Shown: positions 5,774 through 59,057, counted from the stretch's first letter. The stretch is DNA of 64,000 nt from Candidatus Multivoradales bacterium (GCA_965223325.1 CBDCWI010000002.1:4448001-4512000), one strand, 5' to 3'. Made by a program: numbers and translations. Notes: a model not told the origin generated them from the letters alone.

Positions 5774-6038
5774 GGGCTGGCGTTTCCTTGGCGTGTTTCG
5801 AGCGGTCGGGGCGGGTTCGAACTCGGTGGTCCGTTCGCTGTCACGGCATGCTCCGAGGGAACTCCCGGTGAATCGTAGGCCTCCCTCGTTGCTACTGCCG
5901 TGCACCGTCAGCGGTAGCCGGCGGGCGTCCCGCTGATTGGGAGTCACCCGAAGCACAGAAATTATAGATTAAGTAGAATTGCGAGACTTGGCTTTTCGGC
6001 AGCCAATACCTCATTTCGAGTTCTTTCGAGGGCAATCG

Positions 6039-7075: not shown

Positions 7076-7149
7076 GGCGTCCCCAGGGAGTCGTCGGCCG
7101 CGTCACACTGTAGCTACGGGTACCGTCATTCGCCCTGGCGGCGTTCCGC

Positions 7150-16809: not shown

Positions 16810-16836
16810 CAAAGTAGTCAGCTCGGTAACAGGCAC
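16805..16836 (+). repeat. Piece of IS110 leader (hairpin)
   Basis: gctgacaaagtagtcagctcggtaacaggcac is the near-exact reverse complement of ~36197-36228. Confidence 0.75.
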
Positions 16837-18350: not shown

Positions 18351-18365
18351 GAGAACTCGGCGCGG

Positions 18366-18481
18366 ACACCCATCGAGGCGGTGAAAGAGGACGATGGAGT
18401 GCTTCGGAACTCGGCGCGTCGCCTTGTCTGGCGTTTCCGTGAAAACTTACCCTCGACCGTGCGCGGCATCGCCGCGCGATC
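18366..18481 (+). repeat. Solo right end of family B (B1-type 3' UTR)
   Basis: Matches 14168-14283; fused directly behind A2. Confidence 0.9.
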
Positions 18482-21214: not shown

Positions 21215-21259
21215 GATCGCGCAGCGATGCCGCGCACAGTCGGGGGTAGGTTTTGAGCC
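21215..21259 (+). repeat. Solo left end of family B
   Basis: gatcgcgcagcgatgccgcgcacagtcgggggtaggttttgagcc followed by a G8 run. Confidence 0.9.
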
Positions 21260-21267
21260 CTCGGGGG

Positions 21268-21430
21268 GGGCACCCTCGTGAAGGATCTCATCGAGCAGGC
21301 TGCGGGAGTCCGAAACCGGAAACTCGTGGATCGTGGCGGCGGAAGTAGACTCGGACATGGTGGCGTATCTCCTTTGCCCTCGCGGGCGATTGGGGGGTTA
21401 GGCAACCCCAGGATACGCCGCCCTTCTCAT
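21268..21430 (-). pseudogene. IS256-family 5' remnant
   Basis: GGAG RBS + MSESTSAATIHEFPVSDSRSLLDEILHEGA, resembling IS256 transposase N-termini. Confidence 0.6.
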
Positions 21431-21459
21431 CTACTCGGAACCCGACCCCCGCCTGGCGG

Positions 21460-22985
21460 GGCCGACGCTCCAGGCACCTATGTTTCATAGCCATGCGAGG
21501 TTCACGCGCCTGCCGAGATTCACGAGCGTCAGCGGCCGTCAGGAAAGTGAGCCACCTTGCCTCCAGCGGCGTGCCACCGGCGAAGTCCTGCCAGGCGATG
21601 CCCCGCGAGGCGCTTTGAACAACGGCACTCGAAGGCGGGGGCCGTAACAAGAGCGCAGATTCTCGGGAGGTACGACAACCAGGATCGCCAAACAACGGCA
21701 GCTTCCTCCCCATGCGTTTCGCCAAGCCCAGGATCTACACGCCCAACAGCGTCGTCGAAGTCACCACGCGCTGCCTCCAGTCGCGTTTCCTCCTGCGCCC
21801 GAGCAAAGAAGTCAACAACGAGATCATCGCCGTCCTGGCTCGTGCGCAGCGGCTCTACGGAGTGAGCGTCCACGCCTTCTGGTTCGGCTCAAACCACTGC
21901 CATCTCTTGCTGTCCGCCGAATCGCAGTGGCACATCTCGCGCTTCATGGGTTTCACCAACGGAAACATCGCGAGACGAGTTGGCCGGTTGCAGCGTTGGC
22001 GCGAGCGGTTCTGGTGTCGCCGTTACCAGGGCATCGAACTCACCGACGAGCCGCAAGCCGCCTACCAGCGTCTCCGCTACGTCTTGGCGCAGGGCTGCAA
22101 AGAAGGGCTGATTGATTCGCCGCTTGACTGGCCCGGTGTGACCAGTGCTCGCGCTCTTGCCGGCGGCTCGATGAAGCTCTCGGGCGTCTGGCTAGATCGC
22201 ACCGGCCTGTACCACGAGCGCGTCCGCCGAGGAGTGATCGGCCCGCGATCCAAACAGCTGAGCCGGAGCGAGCGTCGCGAGGCGAATCGCAAGATCGACA
22301 TCACCGAGTTCGAGACGGTCGAGGAGCTCACTCTCGAGCCCCTGCCGCACTTTGCCGACCTGAGCGCCGAGGCCTACCGCAAGATGATCGTTTCGATGAT
22401 CGAAGACATCGAGGAAGAGACAGGCCAACGCCTCGATCTCGAAGGTCGGCGGAGCATGGGACGCGAGAAGATTCTCGCCCAGGACCCTCACGCCGCTCCG
22501 CGGCAGTCGAAGCGCAGCCCCGCCCCGGCCTGCCACGCCCACACCCGGGAACAGCGCGTCGCGTTCATCGTCAACCGCTGGCATTTCGTTGTGGCGTACA
22601 GGAGGGCGGCGCGTAGGTTGCGTTCGGGTGAGAAGAACGTCGCGTTCCCTCGAGGTTGCTTTCCGCCGCGCGGCGCGTTCGTTCCGCACGCGGCTCGCGC
22701 TCCTGGATAGAAGGACTTCAGTGTTGCGTCTTTTGGGGACGGCGATCACGAGATCGCGGCGCGAGTTATGGCGCAGTCAATCGCGCAGCGGCTTGGACTG
22801 GCTTGGACGGTGGTTTGAGGTGTGATCGAGCCGCGTTGAGGAGGTGTTTGGAGCGGATCTGCTTGCGCATGTCCAGTACGGCCGCAGACTTGGCTCCGGG
22901 ATCCGACTCGTGAATCTCGGCATGCGCGTGAACCTCGCATGGCTATGAAACATAGTTGCCTGGAACGTCTCCGAGGCGGCCTCGG
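21460..22985 (+). mobile_element. Family-A HUH element copy A3
   Basis: Inverted ends; right hairpin ccgaggcggcctcgg; left boundary approximate. Confidence 0.85.
21712..22710 (+). CDS. RAYT-like Y1 HUH transposase, family A
   Basis: Intact 332 aa, near-identical to A2. Confidence 0.8.
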   Translation: MRFAKPRIYTPNSVVEVTTRCLQSRFLLRPSKEVNNEIIAVLARAQRLYGVSVHAFWFGSNHCHLLLSAESQWHISRFMGFTNGNIARRVGRLQRWRERFWCRRYQGIELTDEPQAAYQRLRYVLAQGCKEGLIDSPLDWPGVTSARALAGGSMKLSGVWLDRTGLYHERVRRGVIGPRSKQLSRSERREANRKIDITEFETVEELTLEPLPHFADLSAEAYRKMIVSMIEDIEEETGQRLDLEGRRSMGREKILAQDPHAAPRQSKRSPAPACHAHTREQRVAFIVNRWHFVVAYRRAARRLRSGEKNVAFPRGCFPPRGAFVPHAARAPG

Positions 22986-23545
22986 GAGATCGAGGACGAG
23001 ACCCGGGCGCGCCACAAGCGAAAGGGCACGAGGCCTCGCGGCGCCTACAAAACGGCGCAGGTGAGTCCGATGCGCCGTCCGAGGAAGCTCGATTGGGGGC
23101 CGAGGCCTCGGGTCATCGCGTCGGACTCGTACGAACGCAATCGGCTGCTTTCGGTTTTCGATGCGGTGAGGCGAGCGCATCGTGCGGCGCGCGATCTTCT
23201 GTGGGGTGGTGACCTGGAGGCGCGGTTTCCCCCCGGAACTTTCCCAAGCCCGCTGCCGTTCGTGGCCCTGGAAGTGCCTGGGCCAGGTACACGCGACGGT
23301 CCCTGACGGCCCAGGCCACCGGCGAAGAGGTTGAGGGGGACGCACCGATCGGTGTGTTGGCGGAGCTCCGTTTGTCGGGCGGAGTACCCACGTTCAGGAG
23401 TGGTGAAGGCGAGGTTTCTGCCTTCGTCACCGCCCTTCGAGGTCGGAGAGGAGGGCGATGGAGCGCGCGAAGGCTCGGCGCTTCGTCCAGTCCAGCGTTG
23501 CCGTCAAAACTTACCCCCGACCGTGCGCGGCATCGCCGCGCGATC
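22986..23545 (+). mobile_element. 5'-truncated family-B element
   Basis: Starts at EIEDETR codons directly after the A3 hairpin; canonical right end. Confidence 0.9.
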
Positions 23546-24297
23546 TTCGAGCTCGAGGGCACCTGGGTCGATCGTTCGGCGCTTCGCCGTGCCCGTTTCT
23601 CGAAAGCCGGTCGTCGTTTGAGCGAAAAGGACTTCTCGAGCCGCGAGACGGTCGTGTTATCGAAGCTTCCGTGCCTCGAGGACCTCCCTGACGAGGAGTA
23701 CTTCGACTGGGCCCGCGGGATGATTGTTGAGATCGAGGACGAGACCCGGGTGCGCCACAAGCGAGAGGGGACGAGGCCTCGCGGTGCCTACAAGACGATG
23801 CAGGTGAGTCCGATGCGCCGTCCGAGGAAGCTCGATTGGGGGCCGAGGCCTCGGGTCATCGCGTCGGACTCGTACGAACGCAATCGCCTGCTTTCGGTTT
23901 TCGATGCGGTGAGGCGAGCGCACCGCGCGGCACGGGATCTTCTGTGGAGTGGTGACCTGGAGGCGAAGTTTCCGCCTGGCACTTTTCCAAGCCCGCTGCC
24001 GTTTGTGGCCTTGGAAGTGCCTGGGCCGGGTGCACGCGACGGTCCCTGACGGTCCGGGCCGCCGGCGAAGAGGTTGACAAGGTTGAGGGTGACGCACCTA
24101 TCGGTGTGATGGCGGAGCTGCGTTTGTCGGGCAGAGTGCCGAGGTTTCAGGGGTGGCGAAGGCGAGGTTTCTGCCCTCGCGATGACCGATCGAGGTGGTG
24201 GAGAAGGCTGATGGAGCGCTCTGGATTCGGCGCGGCGCCTTCGTCGGCGCTGCCATCAAAACTTACCCCCTACCGTGCGCGGCATCGCCGCGCGAAC
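23546..24297 (+). mobile_element. 5'-truncated family-B element
   Basis: Starts at FELEGTW directly after a B GATC end; ends in GAAC instead of GATC. Confidence 0.9.
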
Positions 24298-24369
24298 TGA
24301 CTACTTTGTCAGCTGCCTGGGAGGCCGACCGACTCATTTCATCTGGAACGTCTCGAGGCGAAGCCTCGG
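24297..24369. repeat. IS110 leader remnant fused to the tip of a family-A right end
   Basis: ctgactactttgtcagctgcctgggaggccgaccgactcatttcat-CT-ggaacgtctcgaggcgaagcctcgg; same junction at 36258. Confidence 0.8.
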
Positions 24370-24422
24370 GGAGGTACACGCTATTCCCGCACACTCGGTA
24401 CACGCTATTCCTGAATTCGCGT

Positions 24423-25643: not shown

Positions 25644-27037
25644 GATCGCGCGGCGATGCCGCGCCCAGTCGGGGGTAAGTTTTGAGTCGAAGTCGTGGCG
25701 CAGGACCGGGACTCGCCACCGGCCCAACGTGTAGCCCGATTCACAAGATGACAGTTGGTCGATGGCGAGGGTCATCCGCTAGGATTCGGCTCCCTGCAAG
25801 GCATCGATGGTTCCGTGCGATGAGTCATGGCCCATCAACTGAGGTATGTCCCCACCGACGGAAGCGGTTGGGGAGTCGTCGAAGTGACGGTGCGCATCGT
25901 CAACGGATTCTTCCTGTTGGCGCCATCGTCACGCCTGCGCGACCTGCTGATCGGGATCATCGGCCGCGCGCAGCGAAAGACCGAAATCCGGATCCACGCC
26001 CTGGACTACCAGGTCAATCATGCCCACCTTCTGCTGGGCGCTCGCGACGCCCAGCAGCTGGCCGATTTCATGCGGCGCATTCAGCACCAGACGAGTGTGG
26101 AACTACGGATCCTGCGCGGGTGGAAGGGTCCGAAATGGGAAGGGCCCTACAAGACGTCGTTCCCCGGTCACGCGAAGAAGGACCTCTGCCGGCGCTTTCG
26201 CTACATCCTTGCCCAGGGCTGCAAGGTGGGATTGGTGTCTTCACCGCGCAAGTGGCCAGGCGTGTCGGTGGGGGAGGCGCTGTGGTCAGGGACCTTCGAG
26301 CTCGAGGGCACCTGGGTCGATCGTTCGGCGCTTCGTCGTGCCCGTTTCTCGAAAGCCGGTCGTCGTTTGAGCGAAAAGGACTTCTCGAGCCGCGAGACGG
26401 TCGTTTTATCGAAGCTTCCGTGCTTCGAGGACCTCCCTGACGAGGAGTACTTCGACTGGGCCCGCGGGATGATTGTAGAGATCGAGGACGAGACCCGGGT
26501 GCGCCACAAACGGGAGGGAACGAGGCCTCGCGGCGCGTACAAAACGACGCAAGTGAGTCCAATGCGTCGCCCGCGGAAGCTCGATTGGGGGCCGAGGCCT
26601 CGGGTCATCGCGTCGGACTCGTTCGAGCGCAATCGGCTGCTTTCGGTTTTCGATGCGGTGAGGCGAGCGCATCGCGCGGCGCGGGATCTTCTCTGGAGTG
26701 GTGACCTGGAGGCGCGGTTTCCCCCCGGGACTTTTCCAAGCCCGCTGCCCTTTGTGGCCTTGGAAGTGCCTGGGCCGGGTGCACGCGACGGTCCCTGACG
26801 GCCCAGCCCACCGGCGAAGAGGTTGAGGGGGATGCACCGATCGGTGTGTTGGCGGAGCTCCGTTTGTCGGGCGGAGTACCGACGTTCAGGAGTGGCGAAG
26901 GCGAGGTTTCTGCCTTCGTCACCGCCCCTCGAGGTCGGAGAAGAGGGCGATGGAGCGCGCGAAGGCTCGGCGCTTCGTCCAGTCCAGCGTTGCCGTCAAA
27001 ACTTACCCCCGACCGTGCGCGGCATCGCCGCGCGATC
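25644..27037 (+). mobile_element. Family-B HUH element copy B3
   Basis: Canonical GATC-hairpin ends. Confidence 0.9.
25827..26798 (+). CDS. RAYT-like Y1 HUH transposase, family B
   Basis: Intact 323 aa. Confidence 0.8.
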   Translation: MAHQLRYVPTDGSGWGVVEVTVRIVNGFFLLAPSSRLRDLLIGIIGRAQRKTEIRIHALDYQVNHAHLLLGARDAQQLADFMRRIQHQTSVELRILRGWKGPKWEGPYKTSFPGHAKKDLCRRFRYILAQGCKVGLVSSPRKWPGVSVGEALWSGTFELEGTWVDRSALRRARFSKAGRRLSEKDFSSRETVVLSKLPCFEDLPDEEYFDWARGMIVEIEDETRVRHKREGTRPRGAYKTTQVSPMRRPRKLDWGPRPRVIASDSFERNRLLSVFDAVRRAHRAARDLLWSGDLEARFPPGTFPSPLPFVALEVPGPGARDGP

Positions 27038-27158: not shown

Positions 27159-29975
27159 TCACCGTGTGGTTCTTGACATCTGCAAGACTTCGGCAACTTC
27201 ATCCCGGCCTTCCAGGCCATTGCCTGCGGGGCAGTCGATCCGGAGGAGCAGATTCTGTTGTCTTCTCAGTCGGGTCTCGGCCCAGGCTAAAACCTCCTCC
27301 TCCTGAGAGAAGAGAATGACCTGGCGTTGGGTGCTCTCCGCTAACAACAGGTCGAGGATGGCCTGAGTCCGGTCAGCATCGGAGTGTACGGTGACGTCGT
27401 CCAAGAAGACCGGCGCTATCTCTTCCGTCGTGACGAGAGTCTCGGCCAGAGCGAGGCGCAACAGTAGGTAGATCTGTTCTGCAGTTCCGTGGGAGAGGTG
27501 TGGTGCCGTCCGCCACTGGCCGTCTGCGTCTTGGGCTTGAATCTCGAGGCTCGCCGGATCGATTCGCGCGTCGACGTAGCGCTCGCTCGTAGCTTTGCCA
27601 ATGTGGCGAGAGATGATGGCCGAGAGCCTGGGCGCGATGTCCCGTTGGATCTCGTCCTTCGCCTCGGCCAGGAAGGTAGCTGTTCTCTCGAGGATCGCAT
27701 CCAGTTCTTCGAGTCGCTCGAGATCGGCACGAGCGGCAGCGTGCTGTTCTTCAGCTTCTGCGACGTCTGGCTTGGCGCTCTCGAACTCCTGGATCTTCCC
27801 CTTCAGCTGTTCCGCTTCGTTCTGGGCTTCCCGGAGCCGCACATCCGAGCGGTCGGCGGCTTCTTGGAGCCTCCCGACGGGTCCCGGTGGGACGGACGGC
27901 CAGGGGAGGGGACCAAGCTCGCGCTCGTAGTCGGCGAGACGCTCTTCGAGCTCCAGAAGGCTCGAGGGCCCGAGAAGGCCGCAAAGTCGCTCGAAGGCTT
28001 CACGGCTTCGGTCGAGCTCCTGGTCCTGCTTGTCGAGCTGGAGGAGCCTGGCTTCGAGCTTCCCCGCCAAGGAATCACCTGGTTCTCCATCGATTCCTAG
28101 TCGTCTTGCCGCTTGCACGAGCTTCTGCTCCAGCCGCATCGCACGTCCCTGTTGTTGCGCGTACGCTTCCTCCTGGCGTCGGCGAAGCTCGAGGTTTTCT
28201 GCGAGGTCGCTCCGGCGGGCGGCAAGGACAGCCAGCTCCCGGTTCGTTCGACATTGCCCGGCGTAGTCCACCGCCAGCTGTCGGAGGTCGAGATCTTCGA
28301 TCCTCGGATCGTCGAGGCCGCGCTGCAGTAGTTCTTTGCGAAGTCCGTGGGCGGCGTCTTCGAAGGCTCGGGAGTACTGCTGCTCCATGAGCTTCCATTT
28401 GTCGTACTGCTCCTGCTGGAGGTGGGTATCGTCGACGGCGGACGCGAGGCGCCGAAGATCCTGTGGGGCCGTGGGGAGCCCGTTCGCTGCCAGGCGTCTC
28501 CTGGCGTCTTCCTGAGCACTCTCTACTTCTGTTCGACGATCTCGTTGCACCTCGAGTCGAGTTGCCAGGGAGCTCGTCCGTTGCTGGCCCGATTGCCCCG
28601 CTAGCAGCAACCATGCGGTAGCTGCACCAGTGAGGAGGCCGGCGATAGCCGATGCTCCGGCTCCAGGGTTTGTTCCAGAGGAAAACAGGACAATCGCTAG
28701 GACAACCAGCGTAGTCGTGAAGCTCGCCATGGCCCACGAGGCTTTGCGCCGCTGAACGCCAGCCTCACGAAGGTCCTCAAGCTGGCGTTCGAGCTCGGAG
28801 TCGACATCAGGCAGTAGCCTCTCGAGACTCTCGGCGTAGACACGCAACTCCGGCCCCGTGGGGAGTCCCGATTCATGGGCCTCGACGGGGGGCCGAAAAG
28901 ACTGGTTGCGGTGTACCTCGAGCTCTCGCTTGCAGGAGTCGTAGGTGGCTAGTGCCGTCTCGACCTCGGGTGCTACCTCGGTGTCTCCCTGGGGTGGGAA
29001 CGGTAGTGAAGCGAGCTCCTGTTCGATGTCTGCGGCAGATGGCCCCGAGTCTGGGGGCACCGGCATCGACCGTCCTCGCCAGGTGGCCAGAACGTCGCTG
29101 ATAGAGCGCCGCTGATCCGAAGTCGAGTCGCCCGTTGGTGGTGCACCATCGGGGAATTGCGACTGGAGGACCCGGATTTCCTGGACCTTCTCCGACAGCG
29201 AAGCGGCCTTCGCAACCAGGACGACTCGTCTGGCCTCGTCGTACGCTCTCTGAAGTCGGACGACGTCCTCTTCGCTCTCGCTCAGATCGTCGAGTAGTTG
29301 CAGAAAGCGCTCGTGTTCGACTCGCGCCATCTCAAGATGGGACTCCGTGCTCCGAAGTTGCTCGACCGCGGCTGGCAGAGGCTTGGAAGACCCGCGCCGC
29401 CTCATGCCGACGTTTTCGGAGCGAAACTCCTTGACGCATCGAAGAGCCGCTTCGGCCGTAGCGTCGGAATTGCCCGCGATCGCCGCCTTCTGCAACTGCT
29501 CTTGAAAGTCTTCCGGATGAGACAAGACCTCGAGGAGTTCCGCCTGTCTGACGCAGACGGTGCCACCGAAGATTTGGCGATTCAAACCGAGGACTCCTGA
29601 GGCGTCGGCTGAACCCTCGAAGATGTACCGACTCGTGAGATCGCGTCCGGTTGCCGCGTCCGTGATCTTGCTTCCCGCCGGATCGGCGAGGTCCTGGAGG
29701 ACCTCCAGGACGTTGCCGTCGTCCAACTCGACAAGGACCAGGACCTTCCAGTCCGCACGGCCCCATGGCTGGTGACGCTGCACCAGGGCTTCATCCGCCC
29801 TTGCTCGTCGTCCACGGGCTCTCTTCATGCCGCAGAGACCAAGTTGGATCGCAGCATGCCAGCTCGACTTCCCTGCTTCGTTTCCACCCCAGATCAGAGT
29901 GAACCCGGGTGCGAGCTCCAGCTCCTGATCCGAGAAAGGGCCGAACGATATAGCGCGTACGGAGAGCACCCTCAT
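27159..29975 (-). CDS. Rad50/SbcC-like (YhaN-type) SMC ATPase with internal hydrophobic segments
   Basis: Walker A GGNEAGKSS, long coiled coil, LSHGTAEQIYL signature, FLDD Walker B. Confidence 0.85.
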   Translation of the reverse strand: MRVLSVRAISFGPFSDQELELAPGFTLIWGGNEAGKSSWHAAIQLGLCGMKRARGRRARADEALVQRHQPWGRADWKVLVLVELDDGNVLEVLQDLADPAGSKITDAATGRDLTSRYIFEGSADASGVLGLNRQIFGGTVCVRQAELLEVLSHPEDFQEQLQKAAIAGNSDATAEAALRCVKEFRSENVGMRRRGSSKPLPAAVEQLRSTESHLEMARVEHERFLQLLDDLSESEEDVVRLQRAYDEARRVVLVAKAASLSEKVQEIRVLQSQFPDGAPPTGDSTSDQRRSISDVLATWRGRSMPVPPDSGPSAADIEQELASLPFPPQGDTEVAPEVETALATYDSCKRELEVHRNQSFRPPVEAHESGLPTGPELRVYAESLERLLPDVDSELERQLEDLREAGVQRRKASWAMASFTTTLVVLAIVLFSSGTNPGAGASAIAGLLTGAATAWLLLAGQSGQQRTSSLATRLEVQRDRRTEVESAQEDARRRLAANGLPTAPQDLRRLASAVDDTHLQQEQYDKWKLMEQQYSRAFEDAAHGLRKELLQRGLDDPRIEDLDLRQLAVDYAGQCRTNRELAVLAARRSDLAENLELRRRQEEAYAQQQGRAMRLEQKLVQAARRLGIDGEPGDSLAGKLEARLLQLDKQDQELDRSREAFERLCGLLGPSSLLELEERLADYERELGPLPWPSVPPGPVGRLQEAADRSDVRLREAQNEAEQLKGKIQEFESAKPDVAEAEEQHAAARADLERLEELDAILERTATFLAEAKDEIQRDIAPRLSAIISRHIGKATSERYVDARIDPASLEIQAQDADGQWRTAPHLSHGTAEQIYLLLRLALAETLVTTEEIAPVFLDDVTVHSDADRTQAILDLLLAESTQRQVILFSQEEEVLAWAETRLRRQQNLLLRIDCPAGNGLEGRDEVAEVLQMSRTTR

Positions 29976-31069
29976 GGCGGGGCCTCCAGATCAGAGCGCC
30001 CATCGAGAGCACGTAGGCCGGTGATCAGGATCCGCGCCTTCATGTCCTCCGATAGTTCCTGGTCGGCCCGGACCTTGGAGACGAAGCGGCCTCGAACTGT
30101 GGGTTCCTTCTCGAGGCCATCCAGGTCGTAGCCCGGTTGGAGGCCCTGCGACCGGAGTACGATCTGTTCCACGTCGCCGGTCGGGCTGGATAGGCGCTCG
30201 AGGTTGAGATCTATATGGGCAGACAGTTCACCTTTGAGAGTGACCCGGACGACGCCTTTCAGGTGCCTCAGTTCGCCCGAGATCAGCTCGCGTAGCTCGT
30301 CGCAGTGATTGCACGACGTGAGGTCGATGAAGACATCATGCACCTCCGAGACGGCTACAGAGAATCGCTCCCGCGAGATGACCCCGTCGGAGCCGATCTG
30401 GGCGACTACCATCCCACGGTTCCCTGTCTCCCCGAAGGCGAGGGGGTCTGGGTTGCCTGGGTAGGTGAAAAGGTCCTGGTCGGCCGGAGCGTGGTAGTGG
30501 CCTACGAATGCATGCTGAAAGCCGGCCCTTTCGATGTCGGGGCTTTCGAACGGCGCGTGGGGCGCTTGGGAGGCCGTCGCCGGAACGGAGCTGGAGTCTG
30601 CTCCGTGGAAGAGGGCGACGTGGGTGGAGCCGGGCGGGGTTCTGAAGCCACCGAAGAAGGAATCGCAGCGTGTGGGTCCGGTGAACGCTGCGCCCCAGAG
30701 ACAGAGACCGCCTGCGAGTTCTGTCGACTGAAACTCACCCGTCTTGAAAAGGTGTACGTTCGAAGACCATGAGACCTGATGGTAGAGGCTATTCGGCCCG
30801 TACCAGTCGTGGTTTCCGGGACTGATGTAGATCGGGAGCGGGGTGTCTCCGAAGGAAGTGCGAAGGAACTCTCGAGTATCGGGTGACACGCGGTCGTGCT
30901 CATAGAGATCTCCCGCACACAGGATAGCGTCGACTCGCTGCTCCTGGGCGAGATTCAGGATCCTTCTCAAGCAGGCACGGAGAGCGCCGCGACGACGTTT
31001 CGCCACATCGCGTTTTGCCCAGGCAAAGGGGGAATCGAGATGGAGATCAGCGAAGATGGCGAGTCGCAT
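29972..31069 (-). CDS. Mre11/SbcD-like (YhaO-type) metallophosphoesterase nuclease
   Basis: ADLHL, AGDLYE, PGNHD, FHG, VGHYH motifs; 4-bp overlap with the ATPase gene. Confidence 0.9.
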   Translation of the reverse strand: MRLAIFADLHLDSPFAWAKRDVAKRRRGALRACLRRILNLAQEQRVDAILCAGDLYEHDRVSPDTREFLRTSFGDTPLPIYISPGNHDWYGPNSLYHQVSWSSNVHLFKTGEFQSTELAGGLCLWGAAFTGPTRCDSFFGGFRTPPGSTHVALFHGADSSSVPATASQAPHAPFESPDIERAGFQHAFVGHYHAPADQDLFTYPGNPDPLAFGETGNRGMVVAQIGSDGVISRERFSVAVSEVHDVFIDLTSCNHCDELRELISGELRHLKGVVRVTLKGELSAHIDLNLERLSSPTGDVEQIVLRSQGLQPGYDLDGLEKEPTVRGRFVSKVRADQELSEDMKARILITGLRALDGRSDLEAPP

Positions 31070-31565: not shown

Positions 31566-31618
31566 CGCATGGCTATGAAACATAGGTGCCTGGATCCTCT
31601 CCCGAGGCGAAGCCTCGG
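31566..31618 (+). repeat. Solo family-A end in right-end orientation
   Basis: cgcatggctatgaaacataggtgcctggatcctctcccgaggcgaagcctcgg. Confidence 0.85.
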
Positions 31619-31798: not shown

Positions 31799-33389
31799 CC
31801 GAGGCTTCGCCTCGCCTCGGCGACGTTCCAGGCACCTATGTTTCACTGCCATGCGAGGGTTCACGCCCCCGCCAAGGCTTCGCCTCGGCGATGTTCCAGG
31901 CACCTATGATTCACAGCCATGCGAGGTTCACGCGCCTGCCGAGATTCACGAGTGTCAGCGGCCATCAGAAAGTGAGCCACCCCGCCTTCAGCGGCGTTAG
32001 TACGCCACGTGACGCCCCGCGAGCCGCTTAGAACAACGGCACTCGAAGGTGGAGGCCGTAACAAGAGCGGAGATTCTCGGGAGGTACGACAACCAGTTCG
32101 CCAAACAACGACAGCTTCCTCCCCATGCGTTTCGCCAAGCCCAGGATCTACACGCCCAACCGCGTCGTCGAAGTCACCACGCGCTGCCTCCAGTCGCGTT
32201 TCCTCCTGCGCCCGAGCAAAGAAGTCAACAACGAGATCATCGCCGTCCTGGCTCGTGCGCAGCGGCTCTACGGAGTGAGCGTCCACGCCTTCTGGTTCGG
32301 CTCAAACCACTGCCATCTCTTGCTGTCCGCCGCATCGCAGTGGCACATCTCGCGCTTCATGGGTTTCACCAACGGAAACATCGCGAGACGAGTTGGCCGG
32401 TTGCAGCGCTGGCGCGAGCGGTTCTGGTGTCGCCGCTACCAGGGCATCGAACTCACCGACGAGCCGCAGGCCGCCTACCAGCGCCTGCGCTACGTCTTGG
32501 CGCAGGGCTGCAAAGAAGGGCTGATTGATTCGCCGCTTGACTGGCCCGGTGTGACGAGTGCTCGCGCTCTTGCCGACGGTTCGATGAAGCTCTCGGGCGT
32601 CTGGCTAGATCGCACTGGCTTGTACCACGAGCGCGTCCGTCGAGGAGTTATCGGCCCGCGATCCAAACAGCTGAGCCGGAGCGAGCGTCGCGAGGCGAAT
32701 CGCAAGATCGACATCACCGAGTTCGAGACGCTCGAGGAGCTCACTCTCGAGCCCCTGCCGCACTTTGCAGACTTGAGCGCCGCGGCCTACCGCAAGATGC
32801 TCGTTTCGATGATCGAAGACATCGAGGAAGAGACAGGCCAACGCCTCGATCTCGAAGGTGGGCGGAGCATGGGGCGCGAGAAGATCCTCGCCCAGGACCC
32901 TCACGCCGCTCCGCGCCATTCGAAGCGCAGCCCCGCCCCGGCCTGCCACGCCCACACCCGGGAACAGCGCGTCGCGTTCATCGTCAACCGCTGGCGTTTT
33001 GTTGTGGCGTACAGGAGGGCGGCGCGTAGGTTGCGTTCGGGTGAGGAGAACGTCGCGCTCCCGCGAGGTTGCTTCCCGCCGCGTGGCGCGTTCGTTCCGC
33101 ACGCGGCTCGCGCTCCTGGATAGACGAGTTTCAGCGCAGCGTCTTCCGCGTCGGCGATCACGAGGTCGCGGCGCGAGCTATGGCTTTGGTTGTTGCGCTG
33201 GCGACTCGCGGGCGGTTCGGGGCGTGACCGGGCCCTGGCGACCAGTCGTTTCGCGCGAATCGGTTAGCGCGTGCTCAGCAAAGCGGTGAGTTTCGCGCCG
33301 GAGTCTGCCTCGTGAATCTGGGTATGCCCCTGAAGCTCGCTTGGCACCGAAACATAGTTGCCTGGAACGTCTCCGAGGCGAAGCCTCGG
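31799..33389 (+). mobile_element. Family-A HUH element copy A4 with tandemly doubled left end
   Basis: Left-end unit occurs at ~31799 and ~31872; right end ccgaggcgaagcctcgg. Confidence 0.9.
32125..33123 (+). CDS. RAYT-like Y1 HUH transposase, family A
   Basis: Intact 332 aa. Confidence 0.8.
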   Translation: MRFAKPRIYTPNRVVEVTTRCLQSRFLLRPSKEVNNEIIAVLARAQRLYGVSVHAFWFGSNHCHLLLSAASQWHISRFMGFTNGNIARRVGRLQRWRERFWCRRYQGIELTDEPQAAYQRLRYVLAQGCKEGLIDSPLDWPGVTSARALADGSMKLSGVWLDRTGLYHERVRRGVIGPRSKQLSRSERREANRKIDITEFETLEELTLEPLPHFADLSAAAYRKMLVSMIEDIEEETGQRLDLEGGRSMGREKILAQDPHAAPRHSKRSPAPACHAHTREQRVAFIVNRWRFVVAYRRAARRLRSGEENVALPRGCFPPRGAFVPHAARAPG

Positions 33390-33394
33390 CGTGG

Positions 33395-33780
33395 GGCCCG
33401 GGAATGAACTGGTTGGAGACCTGGACGTCGCGGATCTCGAGGAGGGTTCGCAGACTCCCGTTCAACTCCGGGGGGTCGTCATCTACGACGCCTTCTTGCT
33501 GAACACGAAGTTCGGCTTGACCCTTTCCAAGAAGAAGGCGGCTTTCGATCTCTCCACGATCATTCAGGTGCTCGAGTCGCACGATAAGCGCGTAGACATG
33601 CGGGTGAGTTTGCTCGATGGCGACGAAGTGCTCGCGACTGTTCTCAAGAAGGGAATCGACGCCGAGGAGGAGAAGGTCAAGAAGGTCGATCTCCGGCTTC
33701 GGACGGAGCGCGAGCTGTACGAGCGCGCGGTTAATTCAGGCGGCGGTCGACTTCGGCTGGAGATGAAGGTGCGAGAGTAG
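33395..33780 (+). pseudogene. Duplicate of the 3' part of the 6039-7016 gene
   Basis: Matches 6631-7016 (offset 26764). Confidence 0.9.
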
Positions 33781-33913
33781 TTCAGAGCCTAAGGGTCGAG
33801 CCAGTCTGAACCGCCCGATCGGGGTGGTCGGTGTTCGTTGGCGTCCCCAGGGAGTCGTCGGCCGCGTCACACTGTAGCTACGGGTACCGTCATTCGCCCT
33901 GGCGGCGTTCCGC

Positions 33914-35437
33914 GCCTGGCGGCTTTCAAGGCACCTATGTTTCACAGCCATTCGAGGTTCACGCGCCTGCCGAGATTCACGAGCGTCAGCGGCCATCTGG
34001 AAAGTGAGCCACCTTGCCTCCAGCGGCGTGCCACCGGCGTAGTACTGCCACGCGACGCCCCGCGAGCCGCTTGGAACAACGGCACTCGAAGGTGGGGGCC
34101 GTAACAAGAGCGCAGATTCTCGGGAGGTACGACTACCAGTTCGCCAAACAACGGCAGCTTCCTCCCCATGCGTTTCGCCAAGCCCAGGATCTACACGCCC
34201 AACCGCGTCGTCGAAGTCACCACGCGCTGCCTCCAGTCGCGTTTCCTCCTGCGCCCGAGCAAAGAAGTCAACAACGAGATCATCGCCGGCTCGTGCGCAG
34301 CGGCTCTACGGAGTGAGCGTCCACGCCTTCTGGTTCGGCTCAAACCACTGCCACCTCTTGCTGTCTGCCGCATCGCAGTGGCACATCTCGCGCCTCATGG
34401 GTTTCACCAACGGAAACATCGCGAGACGAGTTGGCCGGTTGCAGCGTTGGCAGCGAGCGGTTCTGGTGTCGCCGCTACCAGGGCATCGAACTCACCGCGG
34501 AGCCTCAAGCGGCGTTCCAGCGCCTGCGCTACGTCATGGCGCAGGGCTGCAAAGAAGGGCTGATTGAATCGCCGCTTGACTGGCCCGGTGTGACGAGTGC
34601 TCGGGCTCTTGCCGACGGTTCGATGAAGCTCTCGGGCGTCTGGCTAGATCGCACCGGCTTGTACCACGAGCGCGTCCGCCGAGGAGTTATAGGCCCGCGA
34701 TCCAAACAGCTGAGCCGGAGCGAGCGTCGCGAGGCGAGTCGCAAGATCGACATCACCGAGTTCGAGACGGTCGAGGAGCTCACTCTCGAGCTTCTGCCGC
34801 ACTTTGCCGAGCTGAGCGCCGAGGCCTACCGCAAGATGCTCGTCTCGATGATCGAAGACATCGAGGAAGAGACAGGCCAACGCCTCGATCTCGAAGGTGG
34901 GCGGAGCATGGGACGCGAGAAGATCCTCGCCCAGGACCCTCACGCCGCTCCGCGGCAGTCGAAGCGCAGTCCCGCCCCGGCCTGCCACGCCCACACCCGG
35001 GAACAGCGCGTCGCGTTCATCGTCAACCGCTGGCATTTCGTTGTGGCGTACAGGAGGGCGGCGAGTAGGTTGCGTTCGGGTGAGGAGAACGTCGCGTTCC
35101 CGCGAGGTTGCTTTCCGCCGCGTGGCGCGTTCGTTCCGCACGCGGCTCGCGCTCCTGGATAGAAGGACTTCAGTGTTGCGTCTATTGGGACGGCGATCAC
35201 GAGATCGCGGCGCGAGCTATGGCGCAGTCAACCGCGCAGCGGCTTGGACTGGCTTGGACGGTGGTTTGAGGTGTGATCGAGCCGCGTTGAGGGGGTGTGT
35301 GGAGCGGATCTGCTTGCGCATGTTCAGTATGGCCACGGGCTTGGCTCCGGGATCCGGCTCGTGAATCCCGGCATGCGCGTGAACCTCGCATGGCTGTGAA
35401 ACATAGTTGCCTGCAACGTCTCGAGGCGAAGCCTCGG
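33914..35437 (+). mobile_element. Family-A HUH element copy A5 (same frameshifts as A1; CDS 34168-35162)
   Basis: ORF track translations match A1 except near the C-terminus; 3' UTR closer to A3. Confidence 0.85.
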
Positions 35438-35442
35438 GGGGG

Positions 35443-35990
35443 GGACGAGACCCGGGCGCGCCACGAGAGGGGACTAGGCCTCGCGGTGCCTACAAGACGA
35501 CACAGGTGAGTCCGATGCGCCGTCCGAGGAAGCTCGATTGGGGGCCGAGGCCTCGGGTCATCGCGTCGGACTCGTACGAGCGCAATCGGCTGCTTTCGGT
35601 GTTCGATGCAGTGAGGCGAGCGCATCGCGCGGCGCGCGATCTTCTGTGGGGTGGTGACCTGGAGGCGCGGTTTCCCCCCGGAACTTTCCCAAGCCCGCTG
35701 CCGTTTGTGGCCCTGGAAGTGCCTGGGCCGGGTGCACGCGACGGTCCCTGACGGCCCAGGCCACCGGCGAAGAGGTTGAGGGGGACGCACCGATCGGTGT
35801 GTTGGCGGAGCTCCGTTTGTCGGGCGGAGTACCGACGTTCAGGAGTGGCGAAGGCGAGGTTTCTGCCTTCGTCACCGCCCTTCGAGGTCGGAGAAGAGGG
35901 CGATGGAGCGCGCGAAGGCTCGGCGCTTCGTCCAGTCCAGCGTTGCCGTCAAGACTTACCCCCGACCGTGCGCGGCATCGCCGCGCGATC
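35443..35990 (+). mobile_element. 5'-truncated family-B element
   Basis: Follows a G9 run; canonical right end. Confidence 0.9.
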
Positions 35991-36259
35991 AAGAGTCGGT
36001 TCAGCCACGGGCTCTGCGCGCATGCCTCCAGAGCAATGCCTCTGCATGTGCGATCGGCGAAGAAGCGCCGCATGCGCTCTTGCGTCGTGGGAATCTCGCA
36101 GCGCTCTACGACCGCGCCCTCTTCGGAGATCTCACAGATCGCACTGGTCTTCACATGGACGTCGATGCCAAAGTAACTCATGGTCGGTCTCCTTCCGTGC
36201 CTGTTACCGAGCTGACCACTTTGTCAGCTGCCTGGGAGGCCGACCGACTCATTTTATCT
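35991..36259 (-). mobile_element. IS110-family remnant: leader plus transposase N-terminus (start 36181)
   Basis: MSYFGIDVHVK...IALEA (first D and E of the DEDD RuvC-like domain); AAGGAG RBS; clipped at a B end. Confidence 0.85.
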
Positions 36260-36288
36260 GGAACGTCGCCGGAACGTCTCCGAGGCGA

Positions 36289-36354
36289 GTACAATTATGT
36301 GGACGTGAGCGGCGGTTTTCGCTGTCTTCAATTCCATTGAATAACACGTTGGGC
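36289..36354 (+). other. attI-like site preceding the first cassette
   Basis: Non-palindromic AT-richer tract ending GTTGGGC, complementary to the GCCCAAC of the next attC; homologous copy inverted at 42409-42474. Confidence 0.5.
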
Positions 36355-36976: not shown

Positions 36977-37060
36977 GCCCAACAAAGCGCCTCCACTTGA
37001 CTCGTGCCCGCGCTCGCTTCGCTCGCCCGGCCACGAGCAAGTGAGGCTCGCTCGTTAGGC
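36977..37060 (+). other. attC site (complete, 84 bp)
   Basis: GCCCAAC-5 nt-GCCTCCAC...GTGAGGC-6 nt-GTTAGGC with internal stem ctcgtg/cacgag and an extrahelical base. Confidence 0.85.
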
Positions 37061-38343: not shown

Positions 38344-38419
38344 GCCTAACAGATCGGCTGCACGCGGCCGTCAACCTGTGCTCGCTTCGCTCGCGGCGGT
38401 TGCCGCCGGTGAGCCGATG
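38344..38419 (+). other. attC site truncated just before R' by element B4
   Basis: GCCTAAC-5 nt-GGCTGCAC...GTGAGCC, then the B left end. Confidence 0.8.
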
Positions 38420-39819
38420 GATCGCGCGGCGATGCCGCGCACAGTCGGGGGTAAGTTTTGAGTCGAAGTCGTGGCGCAGGACCGGGACTCGCCACCGGCC
38501 CAACGTGTAGCCCGATTCACAAGATGACAGTTGGTCGATGGCGAGGGTCATCCGCTAGGATTCGGCTCCCTGCAAGGCATCGATGGTTCCGTGCGATGAG
38601 TCATGGCCCATCAACTGAGGTATGTCCCCACCGACGGAAGCGGTTGGGGAGTCGTCGAAGTGACGGTGCGCATCGTCAACGGGTTCTTCCTGTTGGCGCC
38701 ATCGTCACACCTACGCGAACTGCTGATCGGGATCATCGGTCGCGCGCAGCGAAAGACCGAAATCCGGATCTACGCCCTGGACTACCAGGTCAATCATGCT
38801 CACCTTCTGCTGGGCGCTCGCGACGCCCAGCAGCTGGCCGATTTCATGCGGCGCATTCAGCACCAGACGAGTGTGGAACTGCGGATCCTGCGCGGGTGGA
38901 AGGGTCCGAAATGGGAAGGGCCGTACAAGACGTCGTTTCCCGGTCACGCGAAGAAGGACCTCTGCCGTCGTTTCCGCTACATCCTTGCCCAGGGCTGCAA
39001 GGCGGGGTTGGTGTCTTCACCGCGCAAGTGGCCAGGCGTGTCGGTGGGGGAGGCGTTGTGGTCAGGGACCTTCGAGCTCGAGGGCACCTGGGTCGATCGT
39101 TCAGCGCTGCGTCGTGCCCGTTTCTCGAAGGCCGGTCGTCGTTTGAGCGAAAAGGACTTCTCGAGCCGCGAGACGGTCGTGTTATCGAAGCTTCCGTGCC
39201 TCGAGGACCTCCCTGACGAGGAGTACTTCGACTGGGCCCGCGGGATGATTGTAGAGATCGAGGACGAGACCCGGGTGCGCCACAAACGGGAGGGAACGAG
39301 GCCTCGCGGCGCCTACAAGACAACGCAGGTGAGTCCGATGCGCCGTCCGAGGAAGCTCGATTGGGGGCCGAGGCCTCGGGTCATCGCGTCGGACTCGTTC
39401 GAGCGCAATCGGCTGCTTTCGGTTTTCGATGCAGTGAGGCGAGCGCATCGCGCGGTGCGCGATCTTCTGTGGAGTGGTGACCTGGAGGCGAAGTTCCCGC
39501 CTGGCACTTTTCCAAGCCCGCTGCCGTTTGTGGCCCTGGAAGTGGCTGGGCCGGGTGCACGCGACGGTCCCTGAGTCCAGGCCGCCGACGAAGAGGTTGA
39601 CGAGGTTGAGGGCGACGCGCCTACTGGGCGATGGCGGAGCTGCGTCTGCCGGACGGCGTACCGAGGTTCAGGACTGGCGAAAGCGAGGTTTCTGGCCCCG
39701 CGACCACCGATCGACGTCGGAGAGGGGGGCGATGGACTTTGCGCAGACTCGGCGCATTGCCCAAAACGGTGTTGCCGTGAAAACTTACCCCCGACCGTGC
39801 GCGGCATCGCCGCGCGATC
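38420..39819 (+). mobile_element. Family-B HUH element copy B4 (1400 bp)
   Basis: Canonical ends; divergent 3' UTR. Confidence 0.9.
38603..39574 (+). CDS. RAYT-like Y1 HUH transposase, family B
   Basis: Intact 323 aa. Confidence 0.8.
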   Translation: MAHQLRYVPTDGSGWGVVEVTVRIVNGFFLLAPSSHLRELLIGIIGRAQRKTEIRIYALDYQVNHAHLLLGARDAQQLADFMRRIQHQTSVELRILRGWKGPKWEGPYKTSFPGHAKKDLCRRFRYILAQGCKAGLVSSPRKWPGVSVGEALWSGTFELEGTWVDRSALRRARFSKAGRRLSEKDFSSRETVVLSKLPCLEDLPDEEYFDWARGMIVEIEDETRVRHKREGTRPRGAYKTTQVSPMRRPRKLDWGPRPRVIASDSFERNRLLSVFDAVRRAHRAVRDLLWSGDLEAKFPPGTFPSPLPFVALEVAGPGARDGP

Positions 39820-39984: not shown

Positions 39985-41052
39985 GGCGGGGCGTTTCGTA
40001 GCATTGGAGCATGGCGACCACCCTTATTGTAGGCGCGGGCGGTTCCCTTGCCCAAGGCTACAGCTACCGGCCGAAGCAGACGCGAGAGCACCCGCCGCTA
40101 GACGGCAATTTCTTCGAGCGCGCCCGCTCGCTCTCTAGGCACGCGGGCGTCCAGCGCCACCTAAGGCGGCTGAGCAAGGCGGTCAGCCAACACGGCGGAC
40201 TTCCAGATCCAGTTCAAGGCGATCCCTTGCTTGAGCAGTTCTTTGCAGACGTCTACTACGAAGTCGCCTCCATGCGCTCGTCTAGAGCGTTCCCGGTTTT
40301 CGTTGAGCTCCTTCACCTCTACGTTGTAACGATCGCCGCGACAACGAACTGGATCGGACTCAATCGTCGGATCGGAGTGATTGGGCGGCTCATGCGCCTT
40401 TTGAAGGCCCAGGATCCGGACCTGACAGTCGTCACGTTCAATCACGACCTGGTGCTTGAGAATGCAGCGCTTCGGATGCCCGGTGGACGGGACGGTTGGT
40501 GCCTGCAAAGCCTCTACGGAGAACCAGACGTCCGGACTCTAAACACGGAGGGCGAAGAGAAGTTTCGCTATCACCGTGACGACTGCCTACACGAGCCACC
40601 CTTCCGGCTTCTGAAGCTCCACGGATCACTGAACTGGGGGGTCCGAAGCCTGAAGAAGGACCCGGCAATGGGAACGCTTTTCCCTACGAAGCAACGCCAG
40701 ATCTTCATGCACGATACCCGCTACGCTTTCTCTGCGGGAAAGATGAGTGGGGGGTCAGGCGGAGGGCGAAAGAGCTGGTACTTCTGGCCACTGATCGTAC
40801 CGCCGATCTACGACAAGTCGCGCGTCACAGGAATGGCTGTGCTGAACGGGCTGTGGGGGCAGGCCAGCGAAGCGATTCGGTCATCCGAACGCCTCGTCCT
40901 GTTTGGTTACTCACTCCCTGATGCAGACGTCCTTGCAGCTCAGATGCTCAGGCACGCTTTCCGTGCCAATCAGAACCTTGAGAGGGTTGATTGCATCAAC
41001 CCTGACGCTGCGATTGCGAATAAGCTCAAGTCGCGACTCGACTGTTTCGTAG

Positions 41053-42353
41053 GGCTCTTCAGGAATCGTGGTGGGCAAGTGCATGGGGCCTTAGGTCGAG
41101 CCCGCCGAGGTGGAAGTAGATATCGATGCGGAATCGGTCGCGGTTTCTGTAGCCTCGTGCTGATCGCTTGAGCCACTGGATCTTGGTGTTGAAGCCCTCG
41201 ACCTTGGCGTTGGTGACGCCGAGCGCGATGGCGTTCAGGACCCCTTCGAGGTGACGCTGGATCATGCGTGCGACTCGCTTCATCGGGGCTAGGCGTGAAC
41301 GAATCGCCCACGAGTACCACCGGTCGAAGAAGCGGCGCGCAGACTCGCGATCGGCAAGGTCCCAGATCTCCATCAGCATTTCCTTGAGGCGCCAGGCTCG
41401 AGCTGTCCGAAGCGAGCGACGAAGCAAGGAGTCGAAGTCGAGCAGGCGCGACTCCGAGGTTCGCTCGGCCAGCTTTTCGGGGTGGTACAGCCAGAGGTAC
41501 TTCGTCCCCTTGAGACTCTCGTCGCCCGACTCGAGCAGCTGCCGGTTCTCCTCGCGACGGACCTTGTCCACGGCCTGGCCGAGGTGCATCGCCACATGAA
41601 ACTTGTCGAAGGCGATCTTCGATGCGCCGCCAGGCACACGCTCCAACGTCGTCTGGATGAAGGGCCGCCACATGTCCATCGTGATGCTGCGAACCTGTTG
41701 CAGCTCAGCCACTTCGAAGCACTCGAAGTACGAAGACAGGGACTCCTTCCCACGGCCGTCGCTCACCCAGTGGATCACGTTCGCCTGCGTGTCTGCGACC
41801 ACCGTCACGTACTCGTGACGCTTCTGGAAAGACGTCTCGTCGACACCGATGTCTTCGGGCACCGCGAGTTCCCTGCGGGCCAGACCACGGGCCACCGCTC
41901 GCTGCTTGATCCCGTCGACCTCGTCCCACGTCAAGCCAAGAAGTCTGGACACGGCCGACGTGTTCGCAGCCTGCAGCCAGTCGATCACCAGCGCTTCGAA
42001 CAGAGCCGTGAACCCCGAACCCGGATCGGACCAGGGCACCTGGATCGTCTTCACTCCGTGCTCCTTGCACCGCACTCGAGGAACCCGAGCGACGAGGATC
42101 GTCTGGAACTGGCAGGTGTCGAGGTGACGCCAACGCCGCTCGCGATGGTCGTGGACCGTCACCGACCCTTCGCAGGCGGGACAGCGAAGACCCTCACCAC
42201 CGTGATCAACATAAACCTCGACCTTCGTCGAGGCCTCCTCCAACACCACATCGCTCACACGCCAAGGACGAGTGAGGCCGAGAATCCGACCGTACAGTTC
42301 CGTGTCACGCATGGCCCGAAGGCTACGCCACCCACCTCAGATCCTGAAGAGCC
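41053..42353 (-). mobile_element. ISL3-family IS
   Basis: IRs GGCTCTTCAGGA / TCCTGAAGAGCC; 8-bp TSD TTTCGTAG at 41045-41052 and 42354-42361. Confidence 0.95.
41059..42312 (-). CDS. ISL3-family transposase
   Basis: CPAC zinc finger, RWRHLD, IGVDE, TMDMW, FDKFHV, TNAKVEGFN. Confidence 0.95.
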   Translation of the reverse strand: MRDTELYGRILGLTRPWRVSDVVLEEASTKVEVYVDHGGEGLRCPACEGSVTVHDHRERRWRHLDTCQFQTILVARVPRVRCKEHGVKTIQVPWSDPGSGFTALFEALVIDWLQAANTSAVSRLLGLTWDEVDGIKQRAVARGLARRELAVPEDIGVDETSFQKRHEYVTVVADTQANVIHWVSDGRGKESLSSYFECFEVAELQQVRSITMDMWRPFIQTTLERVPGGASKIAFDKFHVAMHLGQAVDKVRREENRQLLESGDESLKGTKYLWLYHPEKLAERTSESRLLDFDSLLRRSLRTARAWRLKEMLMEIWDLADRESARRFFDRWYSWAIRSRLAPMKRVARMIQRHLEGVLNAIALGVTNAKVEGFNTKIQWLKRSARGYRNRDRFRIDIYFHLGGLDLRPHALAHHDS

Positions 42354-48883: not shown

Positions 48884-49154
48884 TGGCAGACTCCGGTGGC
48901 GGAATCGGCGAATTTGGCGATTCCGGAGAGTCTAGGAGTCTAATGGCCAATTCCCATTAATACAAGGAATCAAGAGAATGTAGCGTGGGGGTGCTTGCGT
49001 TCCGGGCAAGAGGGAGCGACGGGGCTTGCCTGGTATCTGGGCGCCTGGCCTGTGGCGGGTCTAAGCCAGGTCTCAGCCGAGGGGCGATCGCCGGCAGCCA
49101 GCAGGCCGACTGCTTTTGGGGGCGGGCTCTTGCGGGGGGACCGAATGGGCGCCG

Positions 49155-52226: not shown

Positions 52227-52401
52227 GGCGAACCGTCCTTTCGAACGAGCCGGCGATCGCGGTGGGGCGAGGCGACTCGAATGGGGCAATGAATCTAGCC
52301 AATTAATGTTTGAAAAACAAGAATTACTAATATACTGGTGAAACGGTGTTTTGAACCGTCCTCGCCATGCCCTCCAGGGCCTTTTCACTTTCTTTCCGCC
52401 A

Positions 52402-59040: not shown

Positions 59041-59057
59041 GGAAACCGAGAGCCGTC

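Follow-up and report, generated by a model that had tools for sequence, protein, structure and literature searches.

Does the A family of transposase genes in Candidatus Multivoradales bacterium move by itself, and do the direct joins between its elements and those of a sister family, B, reflect a working relationship between the two? The question is raised by a 64,000-nt stretch of this genome (hereafter the window), in which the initial annotation had recognized an A unit with hairpin-bearing inverted ends, a homologous B family with different ends, and fusions of the two, and had concluded that A and B are two specificity classes that target each other or cooperate. A and B are two of the seven sibling lineages (A to G) found in this genome.

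The focal A unit is 1.59 kb long and consists of a duplicated left end (31799-31952), a single ORF and a right end that closes in a hairpin (Table 1). The positions first assigned to it fit, the left hairpin starting at 31799 and the right one occupying 33373-33389, and the inverted ends with a GAA hairpin, first described as about 80 bp, are 87-nt arms that include the hairpin ccgaggc-gaa-gcctcgg. The two arms are 82% complementary over these 87 nt (arms of other A copies measure 63-72 nt), and the left end is tandemly duplicated with a unit of about 68 nt. Nine of the 11 sites at which the GAA-hairpin pattern occurs genome-wide are at A ends; with 11 sites and not hundreds, we rejected the hairpin as a genome-wide REP. 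An Rfam search of window positions 5000-44000 gave no match.

Table 1. Features of the A and B elements and associated remnants, in window coordinates.
Feature	Position	Strand	Remarks
A copy, frameshifted	7149-8675	+	Inside segment 6631-8676, 98.9% identical to 33395-35438
Full B copy	12884-14283	+	
Full B copy, scarred left end	14507-15885	+	
A copy, intact ORF 17097-18095	16831-18365	+	Right end adjoins final ~113 nt of B (18369-18481)
A copy, intact ORF 21712-22710	21450-22985	+	Right end adjoins 3' part of B (22986-23545)
3' B piece fused to right end of preceding B piece (B-B join)	23542-24295	+	
Shorter IS110 5'-end remnant	24293-24372	-	Preceded by A hairpin + GACGTTCCAG; cut off by B right end
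Reference B element, ORF 25827-26798, 323 aa	25644-27037	+	Ends GATC + hairpin + CAGTCGGGGGTAAG core; then partial right-end repeats
Solo A-type end with hairpin, upstream of focal copy	31566-31618	-	
Outer tandem copy of A left end	31799-31865	+	Imperfect hairpin + core GACGTTC|CAGGCACC; putative bond 31828/31829
A left inverted arm, 87 nt	31866-31952	+	Hairpin + core; putative bond 31896/31897
A transposase ORF, 332 aa	32125-33123	+	HUH H62/H64, Y123, Q127; Y1_Tnp domain + ~180-aa C-terminal extension
A right inverted arm, 87 nt	33309-33395	-	Putative bond 33364/33365
Terminal hairpin ccgaggc-gaa-gcctcgg, 7-bp stem, GAA loop	33373-33389	+	
A copy, frameshifted	33913-35437	+	Right end + G run adjoins 3' part of B (35443-35990)
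IS110-family remnant (5' end, first ~63 codons)	35991-36290	-	Outer A end up to GACGTTCCAG before remnant; B right end cuts remnant off
Full B copy	38420-39819	+	

The A protein matches the Pfam Y1_Tnp domain (PF01797) with 34 bits against a cut-off of 23, and its scores with the NCBIfam models for RAYT (NF047646; 36.7, cut-off 80) and IS200 (NF033573; 18.9, cut-off 55) lie far below their thresholds. Structure prediction agreed with its placement among RAYT-like proteins: the AlphaFold model (pLDDT 94, pTM 0.91) finds its best structural match in the RAYT-type TnpA-REP 4ER8 (Z 15.4, rmsd 2.6, 155 residues aligned; IS608, Z 8.4), and its top Foldseek matches, ISDra2 and 4ER8, agree with this as to family. 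The long C-terminal extension previously noted amounts to about 180 aa after the Y1_Tnp domain; it gave no Bac_DnaA_C, HTH_23 or HTH_28 Pfam match at E 0.01, and Atlas leads for it all scored below 0.9 and were unnamed. Over 319 aa, A shares 32% identity with B, and the motifs listed as common to them are present in both, except that FPxGxFP reads LPRGCFP in the focal A copy, a variant unique to it (FPRGCFP in the other A copies).

In both proteins, as the initial annotation had observed, YxLAQG takes the position of the RAYT YxxxNP motif when aligned to 4ER8, and a profile puts the Tyr segment of A against YIYINPVKHGWV of E. coli TnpA-REP. Aligning A and B with 108 of the 120 listed homologues, 110 proteins in all, shows the catalytic residues to be conserved (H62 in 110, H64 in 108 and Y123 in 109; H64 and Y123 are 59 aa apart in A). 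The residue at Tyr+4, covered in all 110, is H in 50, Q in 40 and N in 20, and Tyr+5 is G in 99 (A reads YVLAQG). Since the third metal ligand at this place is Q in IS608 and N in TnpA-REP, according to the available text of PMC6006769, the YxxxQG motif is best read as a conservative, family-wide swap of metal ligand (H/Q/N) in what would be an active enzyme. A is an intact HUH/Y1 transposase with a TnpA-REP fold, predicted to cleave and rejoin ssDNA through a 5'-phosphotyrosine.

The description of the A and B ends as unrelated proved accurate, there being no local alignment longer than 5 nt between them; they are alike in their cap, a 7-bp stem and 3-nt loop closed by GGC/GCC. An end scan done by mismatch matching gave, read inward, the A core GACGTTC-CAGGCACC, which fits the family motif (A)GGTKC-CASCC; the core of B and C is CAGTCGGGG and that of E is GTACCGGGTAG. 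The A hairpin lies outside the conserved core, and the GATC hairpin of B likewise lies outside the core that B and C have in common. The segment aligned to W94-Q95 of TnpA-REP, a region linked to guide recognition in the available text of Quentin et al. (PMC6006769), reads FWCRRY in A and KWEGPY in B, and among relatives the GGTKCCASSS end motif accompanies 76 of 116 proteins with RRY and 5 of 40 without it, these counts including kin that are not independent. Phylogeny likewise separated the two. A quick tree of 104 rows, which takes in about half of the locus proteins, was built without a subclass reference set and has as its single outgroup a canonical YxxxNP protein whose branch is very long, placed A beside the proteins P0002 and P0005, in a large group with mostly GGTKCCASSS ends, and clustered B with C and F at a support of 100. 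A and a canonical YxxLNP protein of its own genome are 25% identical over 140 aa. Because distinct end sequences accompany distinct recognition loops, it is plausible, as far as sequence comparison goes, that A and B are two specificity classes, with separate branches, unrelated cores and different recognition segments; this part of the earlier interpretation may stand.

The ends of relatives also carry a trace of where the enzyme may cut. We surveyed 156 distinct genes from 162 loci, giving 296 gene sides whose independence is limited by the relatedness of the genomes, and found a GGTKCCASSS-type motif pointing inward on 113 sides and outward on 8. A perfect tandem repeat overlapped the motif at 29 of these 113 ends, compared with 13 of 2563 random positions. 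The repeat units are mostly 9-16 nt long, and their restart point varies. Their breakpoint fits GGTKC|C in 20 of 32 informative scars, the other 12 breaking elsewhere, and lies exactly there in 8 of the 10 unambiguous ones. In an offset scan of 119 ends, an outer tandem ended at GGTKC|C in 23, one base further in 12 and two bases further in at 2, and an inner tandem started from the bond at 1. Several other origins for these scars were considered and set aside. Microhomology slippage was rejected as their sole source, the 8 unambiguous scars sharing no base at the restart; Ku-dependent end joining is not required, since exact scars occur in a 98%-complete genome (G032) in which Ku was not found. 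Trimming of ends exactly at the bond with loss of the outer part is uncommon (60 of 69 inner-motif matches keep GGTKC or AGTGC), and identical extensions of at least 4 nt outside the motif at both ends occur in only 4 of 38 elements.

In A, the bond homologous to GGTKC|C is GTTC|CAGG. One perfect scar compatible with this bond (C1:2128587) was found among 18 A ends, together with at least one imperfect scar, at the 36270 end; no perfect scar was found in 28 B ends. The A bond is not simply the element boundary: the sequence shared by A copies reaches about 24 nt beyond it, into the hairpin part, and B ends stop sharply at GATC. In the family, the fixed breakpoint on the outer side suggests, from the pattern of repeats, a nick followed by short outward synthesis and resealing. 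HUH enzymes leave a 5'-phosphotyrosine and a 3'-OH able to prime synthesis or reseal (available text of PMC8266576), chemistry that, by analogy with RAYTs and REPtrons, would also be expected of A. The fixed end of the scar is its 5' end when read outward, so that nicking at G|GMACC, short outward extension of the element-side 3'-OH and resealing would account for it most simply; the scars fix the position of the bond, and the choice of strand would follow from the HUH chemistry described in that source.

The genome holds seven A genes (five in the window and two at the C1 end), 94-100% identical, four with open frames and three frameshifted, and nine full B genes, 96-100% identical. All seven A genes and eight of the nine full B genes sit in two clusters, in which A and B genes are all co-oriented; dispersed family copies show no strand bias (10 vs 8 of 18), and a lagging-strand bias was rejected for them on that count. 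The second cluster lies on the minus strand at the end of contig C1 (2144090), and GC skew and co-orientation fit the C1 end continuing from the C2 end (4546094) as one putative region of about 130 kb. In a third, small cluster (C1:1789300-1796600), an E element and a further E end accompany a diverged A right end and a B/A hybrid end. Local clustering is also seen elsewhere, with four co-oriented family genes within 15 kb at one locus of a related genome (L117, G012:C21:98000-117000).

This arrangement could be explained if A were domesticated and immobile, a RAYT-like gene whose copies arose passively through segmental duplication and recombination in an unstable defence island. The copies are clustered and co-oriented, two blocks, of 2.0 kb (98.9%) and 3.5 kb (94%), are duplicated together with passenger genes, three of the seven A genes are frameshifted, and no empty site was found in the genome, paired flank BLAST giving only element-derived matches. 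In the available texts, moreover, RAYT group 1 shows 6.2% duplication (Bertels et al., PMC5581495) and class 2 no evidence of mobility (PMC6006769). We nevertheless consider passive copying improbable, given that the homology of most copies stops at or near their ends, that near-identical copies lie dispersed, in pairs, both here and in other genomes, that many related genomes hold 10-27 matches, that the copies are under purifying selection and that polar scars with a fixed breakpoint need an end-specific enzyme. The pN/pS ratios of 0.16 (three A copies) and 0.08 (eight B copies) indicate such selection, and A and B copies have heterogeneous flanks. In other genomes, five pairs at 95-99.9% identity with different flanks were found in three of the six sampled. 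A is, in our view, a real and probably mobile element.

Recent movement within this genome is most clearly indicated by a pair of lineage D copies (C2:203022 and C2:1374483) that are 99.8% identical over 1373 nt, lie 1.17 Mb apart and have unrelated flanks; in four related genomes (G001, G003, G007, G012), the genes of the left and right D flanks match separate loci. On either side of the lineage F copy (C2:585469-586860) lies a near-palindromic 17-mer, directly repeated and present 10 times genome-wide; such flanks resemble a small repeat family more than they do a simple pair of TIRs.

Beyond this genome, a GTDB scan for relatives gave 448 confirmed stretches, mostly from Thermoanaerobaculia among the 79 loci listed. 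Relatives were present in 29 of 41 genomes searched, and the YxxxQ/H/NG clade numbers 1474 representatives at E<=1e-30. No close orthologue of A or B was found in 40 related genomes, the best-scoring full-length matches being 49% (A) and 40-41% (B) identical; a metagenome scan with the A protein produced 201 pattern matches, none confirmed, and a plasmid tblastn search gave no match. Another case of local clustering is given by three A-like proteins (P0002, P0146 and P0003; 67-75% where scored), the longest contig of each having one length, 38876 nt.

We then come to the A-B joins. Three joins of an A right end to B exist as described, at about 18365/18369, 22985/22986 and 35437/35443 (with a G run between), and the initial annotation had taken them to mean that A and B target each other or cooperate, a reading under which A would insert into B-like sequence or each enzyme would act on the other's ends. 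That all seven A genes and eight of the nine full B genes share two clusters would agree with this, as would a hybrid of a B outer end and an A left end at the third cluster (C1:1795484), close to an E element and another A end. The frequency of the joins does not: in the two clusters (73.8 kb), where B makes up 22% of the non-A DNA, the outside flanks of 20 A ends are B in three cases, E, ISL3, IS110 and A's own duplicate in one each, and non-element sequence in 13. With one block duplicate and the self-duplicate dropped, B lies outside 3 of 18 distinct ends (P=0.80 for at least three), or 3 of 10 when only right ends are taken (P=0.40), and in the reverse direction none of 25 B ends adjoins A in the assembly. 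The same type of join is made with E, ISL3, IS110 and A itself, and further joins do not involve an A-B pair at all (A-A at C1:2132726, where an A end meets an A interior, B-B, E-B and B-IS110). The end cores and recognition loops of the two families also differ.

Within B, only about 8 nt separate the 22985 join from the one at 35437, and a hot spot favourable to targeting could lie here; the two share diagnostic B variants and lie within a 2080-nt match at 95%, and judging from this shared sequence they are probably one event or one hot spot. The possibility that the fusions trace to a single duplicated event, raised at the outset, thus applies to two of the three, which probably have one origin and leave two independent events or a hot spot. 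A clean insertion into B would put B's 5' part to the left of A, an arrangement seen in none of the A copies, and the A-B joins are therefore read as deletions beside an A end and not as insertions into B. In favour of targeting, population contigs show four further types of A-B joint, in which B ends meet either the left end or the interior of A, an A-type end meets a B left end, and the interior of B meets an A arm; none of these is found in the assembly; of seven joints probed against it, six were absent. Their sides are short (28-47 nt at 88% likeness) and the comparison stretch carried one A and one B, so that other join partners could hardly show. These joints speak for ongoing or strain-level rearrangement more than for preference. 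Mutual targeting or cooperation is thus an improbable reading, the part of the earlier interpretation that is not supported, and what looked like a partnership of A and B most likely comes from their clustering.

Joins with IS110 were seen as well. Of the five 5'-end remnants of the IS110 family that the genome holds, four follow the outer part of an A end, up to GACGTTCCAG, namely those at 24293-24372 and 35991-36290 in the window and at C1:2132729-2133020 and C1:2135712-2135787; the ones near 24.3 kb of the window and C1:2135.7 kb are one duplicated block. Either the A end served as a target of this IS110, or it was joined there beside the putative bond. No full IS110 copy was found in the genome with an N-terminal query. 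Runs of G or C at several element junctions (window 35432-35442 and 21259-21270; C1:2133030) resemble filler, as if from joining.

The unrelated genes that lie between the co-oriented elements, beside restriction-modification and helicase genes of defence type, suggest another possibility, namely that the A/B array is an ISCR- or integron-like platform that captures genes and shuffles passengers between elements. One attC-like site (36977-37060), a contig depth of 3.7 vs 18 between passenger segments in one run, a value that is not copy number, and population-contig joints that skip passenger segments would be in keeping with it. The passengers, however, have neither regular spacing nor fixed orientation, no tyrosine recombinase was found within the clusters, most fetched loci of relatives hold a single copy, and shuffling is an expected by-product of self-mobile A elements, all of which makes a capture platform very unlikely.

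The attC-like site follows a 197-aa ORF, and a similar site, recognized by eye, lies at 38345-38419 after a 413-aa ORF, cut by a B left end. The segment with the low depth (3.7 vs 18, run X1) carries a pair of SbcC/SbcD-like ATPase and phosphoesterase genes between B and A (27159-31069) that joints skip, and it may be strain-variable. Defence-type genes border the cluster (3917-5956, 40011-41171 and 43652-61199), including GmrSD-like and SIR2-like genes, a type IIG restriction-methylase and SNF2, DEAH and UvrD helicases; the 3' end of the SIR2-like gene is interrupted by an ISL3 element.

We consider it fairly probable that A is a self-mobile Y1 element of the TIRtron type that nicks its own ends, its fusions with B being deletions into the commonest neighbour. 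First, the enzyme would bind the core of its own end and nick one strand at GGTKC|C (GTTC|CAGG in A). Second, reading outward, the nick at G|GMACC would attach the tyrosine to the 5' end of the flank, while the element would keep a free 3'-OH. Third, a host polymerase would extend this element-side 3'-OH outward over a short distance. If the extended strand were resealed at the original tyrosine link, this would give a tandem scar of 9-16 nt, and joining to a cut elsewhere, usually nearby, would give a new junction. One-ended events of this kind, together with recombination of co-oriented copies, could produce frayed ends, local copies and adjacent deletions, and the A-B fusions would be adjacent deletions that landed in the commonest neighbour, with neither targeting nor cooperation. 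Against self-mobility stand the missing empty site, movement of the unit being deduced, and the confinement of the A genes to two co-oriented clusters, where some are segmental duplicates.

Of the systems known, the TIRtrons or TIRYTs of Di Nocera, De Gregorio and Rocco (2013, PMC3733652) are, in the available text, RAYT-like Y1 genes between long TIRs unrelated to GTAG REPs, as A is; some of their TIRs are self-complementary, and several with different TIRs can occur per genome, in Acidobacteria too. The listed A-family ends lack a GTAG foot and so fall within the basic TIRtron definition. Of the GGGGWSAS motif, which that text gives for some TIRtron TIRs only, the B core GGGGTAAG matches 7 of 8 positions and the A core GACGTTCCAGGCACC does not fit. 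The A family departs from the TIRtrons described there in having YxxxQ/H/NG and not YxxxNP, proteins of 300-335 aa and many near-identical copies per genome, and fixed-breakpoint tandem scars are an A-family feature absent from the available description in PMC3733652. With TnpA-Y1 subclass 2.1, as far as the available text of PMC6006769 describes it, A shares NHxH, the 59-aa spacing from HUH to Tyr, GLVxxPxDW after Tyr, a C-terminal extension and the lack of GTAG REPs. It differs from that subclass in lacking the class 2 Y---NP (YVLAQG in A) and any Pfam match to the Bac_DnaA_C/HTH domain of the TIRYT members, in its length (332 aa against a median of 238 aa) and in the identity of its copies within a genome (94-100% against a table mean of 49%). 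A thus appears, on sequence criteria, to work like a TIRtron and to fit the basic definition without the class 2 signature, TIRYTs being mostly subclass 2.1 (available text of PMC6006769). Subclass 2.3 differs from A in its 55-aa insertion, an HUH-to-Tyr distance of about 110 aa (59 aa in A) and YVDLNP, and TnpA-Y1 class 3 in its Y----Q (Q at +5, where A has Q at +4 and G at +5) and its median of 178 aa.

A resembles RAYT/TnpA-REP proteins and their REPtrons in its best structural match, 4ER8, and in its inverted, hairpin-bearing flanks. REPtrons, however, come with abundant GT[AG]G-footed REPs, whereas A has no GTAG foot and its hairpin occurs at 11 sites, and RAYTs are single-copy, non-duplicating genes, whereas A is present in seven copies. 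The IS200/IS605 TnpA enzymes (IS608, ISDra2) share with A and B the Y---Q ligand, the Y1_Tnp domain and multicopy, IS-like behaviour, but they are short, core-only enzymes half the length of A (332 aa), with distinct LE and RE hairpins on one strand in place of the symmetric inverted ends of A. A is therefore neither a REPtron nor a member of IS200/IS605. Our literature searches, with subscription papers outside their scope, found nothing on TIRYTs or TIRtrons beyond PMC3733652 and PMC6006769, and no paper on the YxxxQ/H/NG clade by titles and abstract openings. We tentatively raise the possibility that this clade is an unnamed autonomous IS family whose inverted ends are symmetric and whose Y1 enzyme, of RAYT fold, would nick at G|GMACC, leave the element-side 3'-OH to be extended by host polymerase over about one helical turn, and then reseal or transfer it, and in which lineage-specific loops would give orthogonal end specificities such as those of A and B.

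In summary, this locus is of value for the evidence it gives that a RAYT-fold gene is mobile, and for a cut-site prediction exact to the base; the A-B partnership looks ordinary. The scars predict the scissile bond to the base and make it directly testable, and the presence in one genome of sibling lineages that differ in their ends makes a natural panel for mapping how the recognition loop determines specificity. With its fresh copies, purifying selection and polar scars, this is a good lineage in which to test self-transposition by RAYT-fold enzymes, and it also bears on how REP-like repeats arise. If the model is true, nick-prime-reseal would be a route of transposition between rolling-circle and single-strand transposition.
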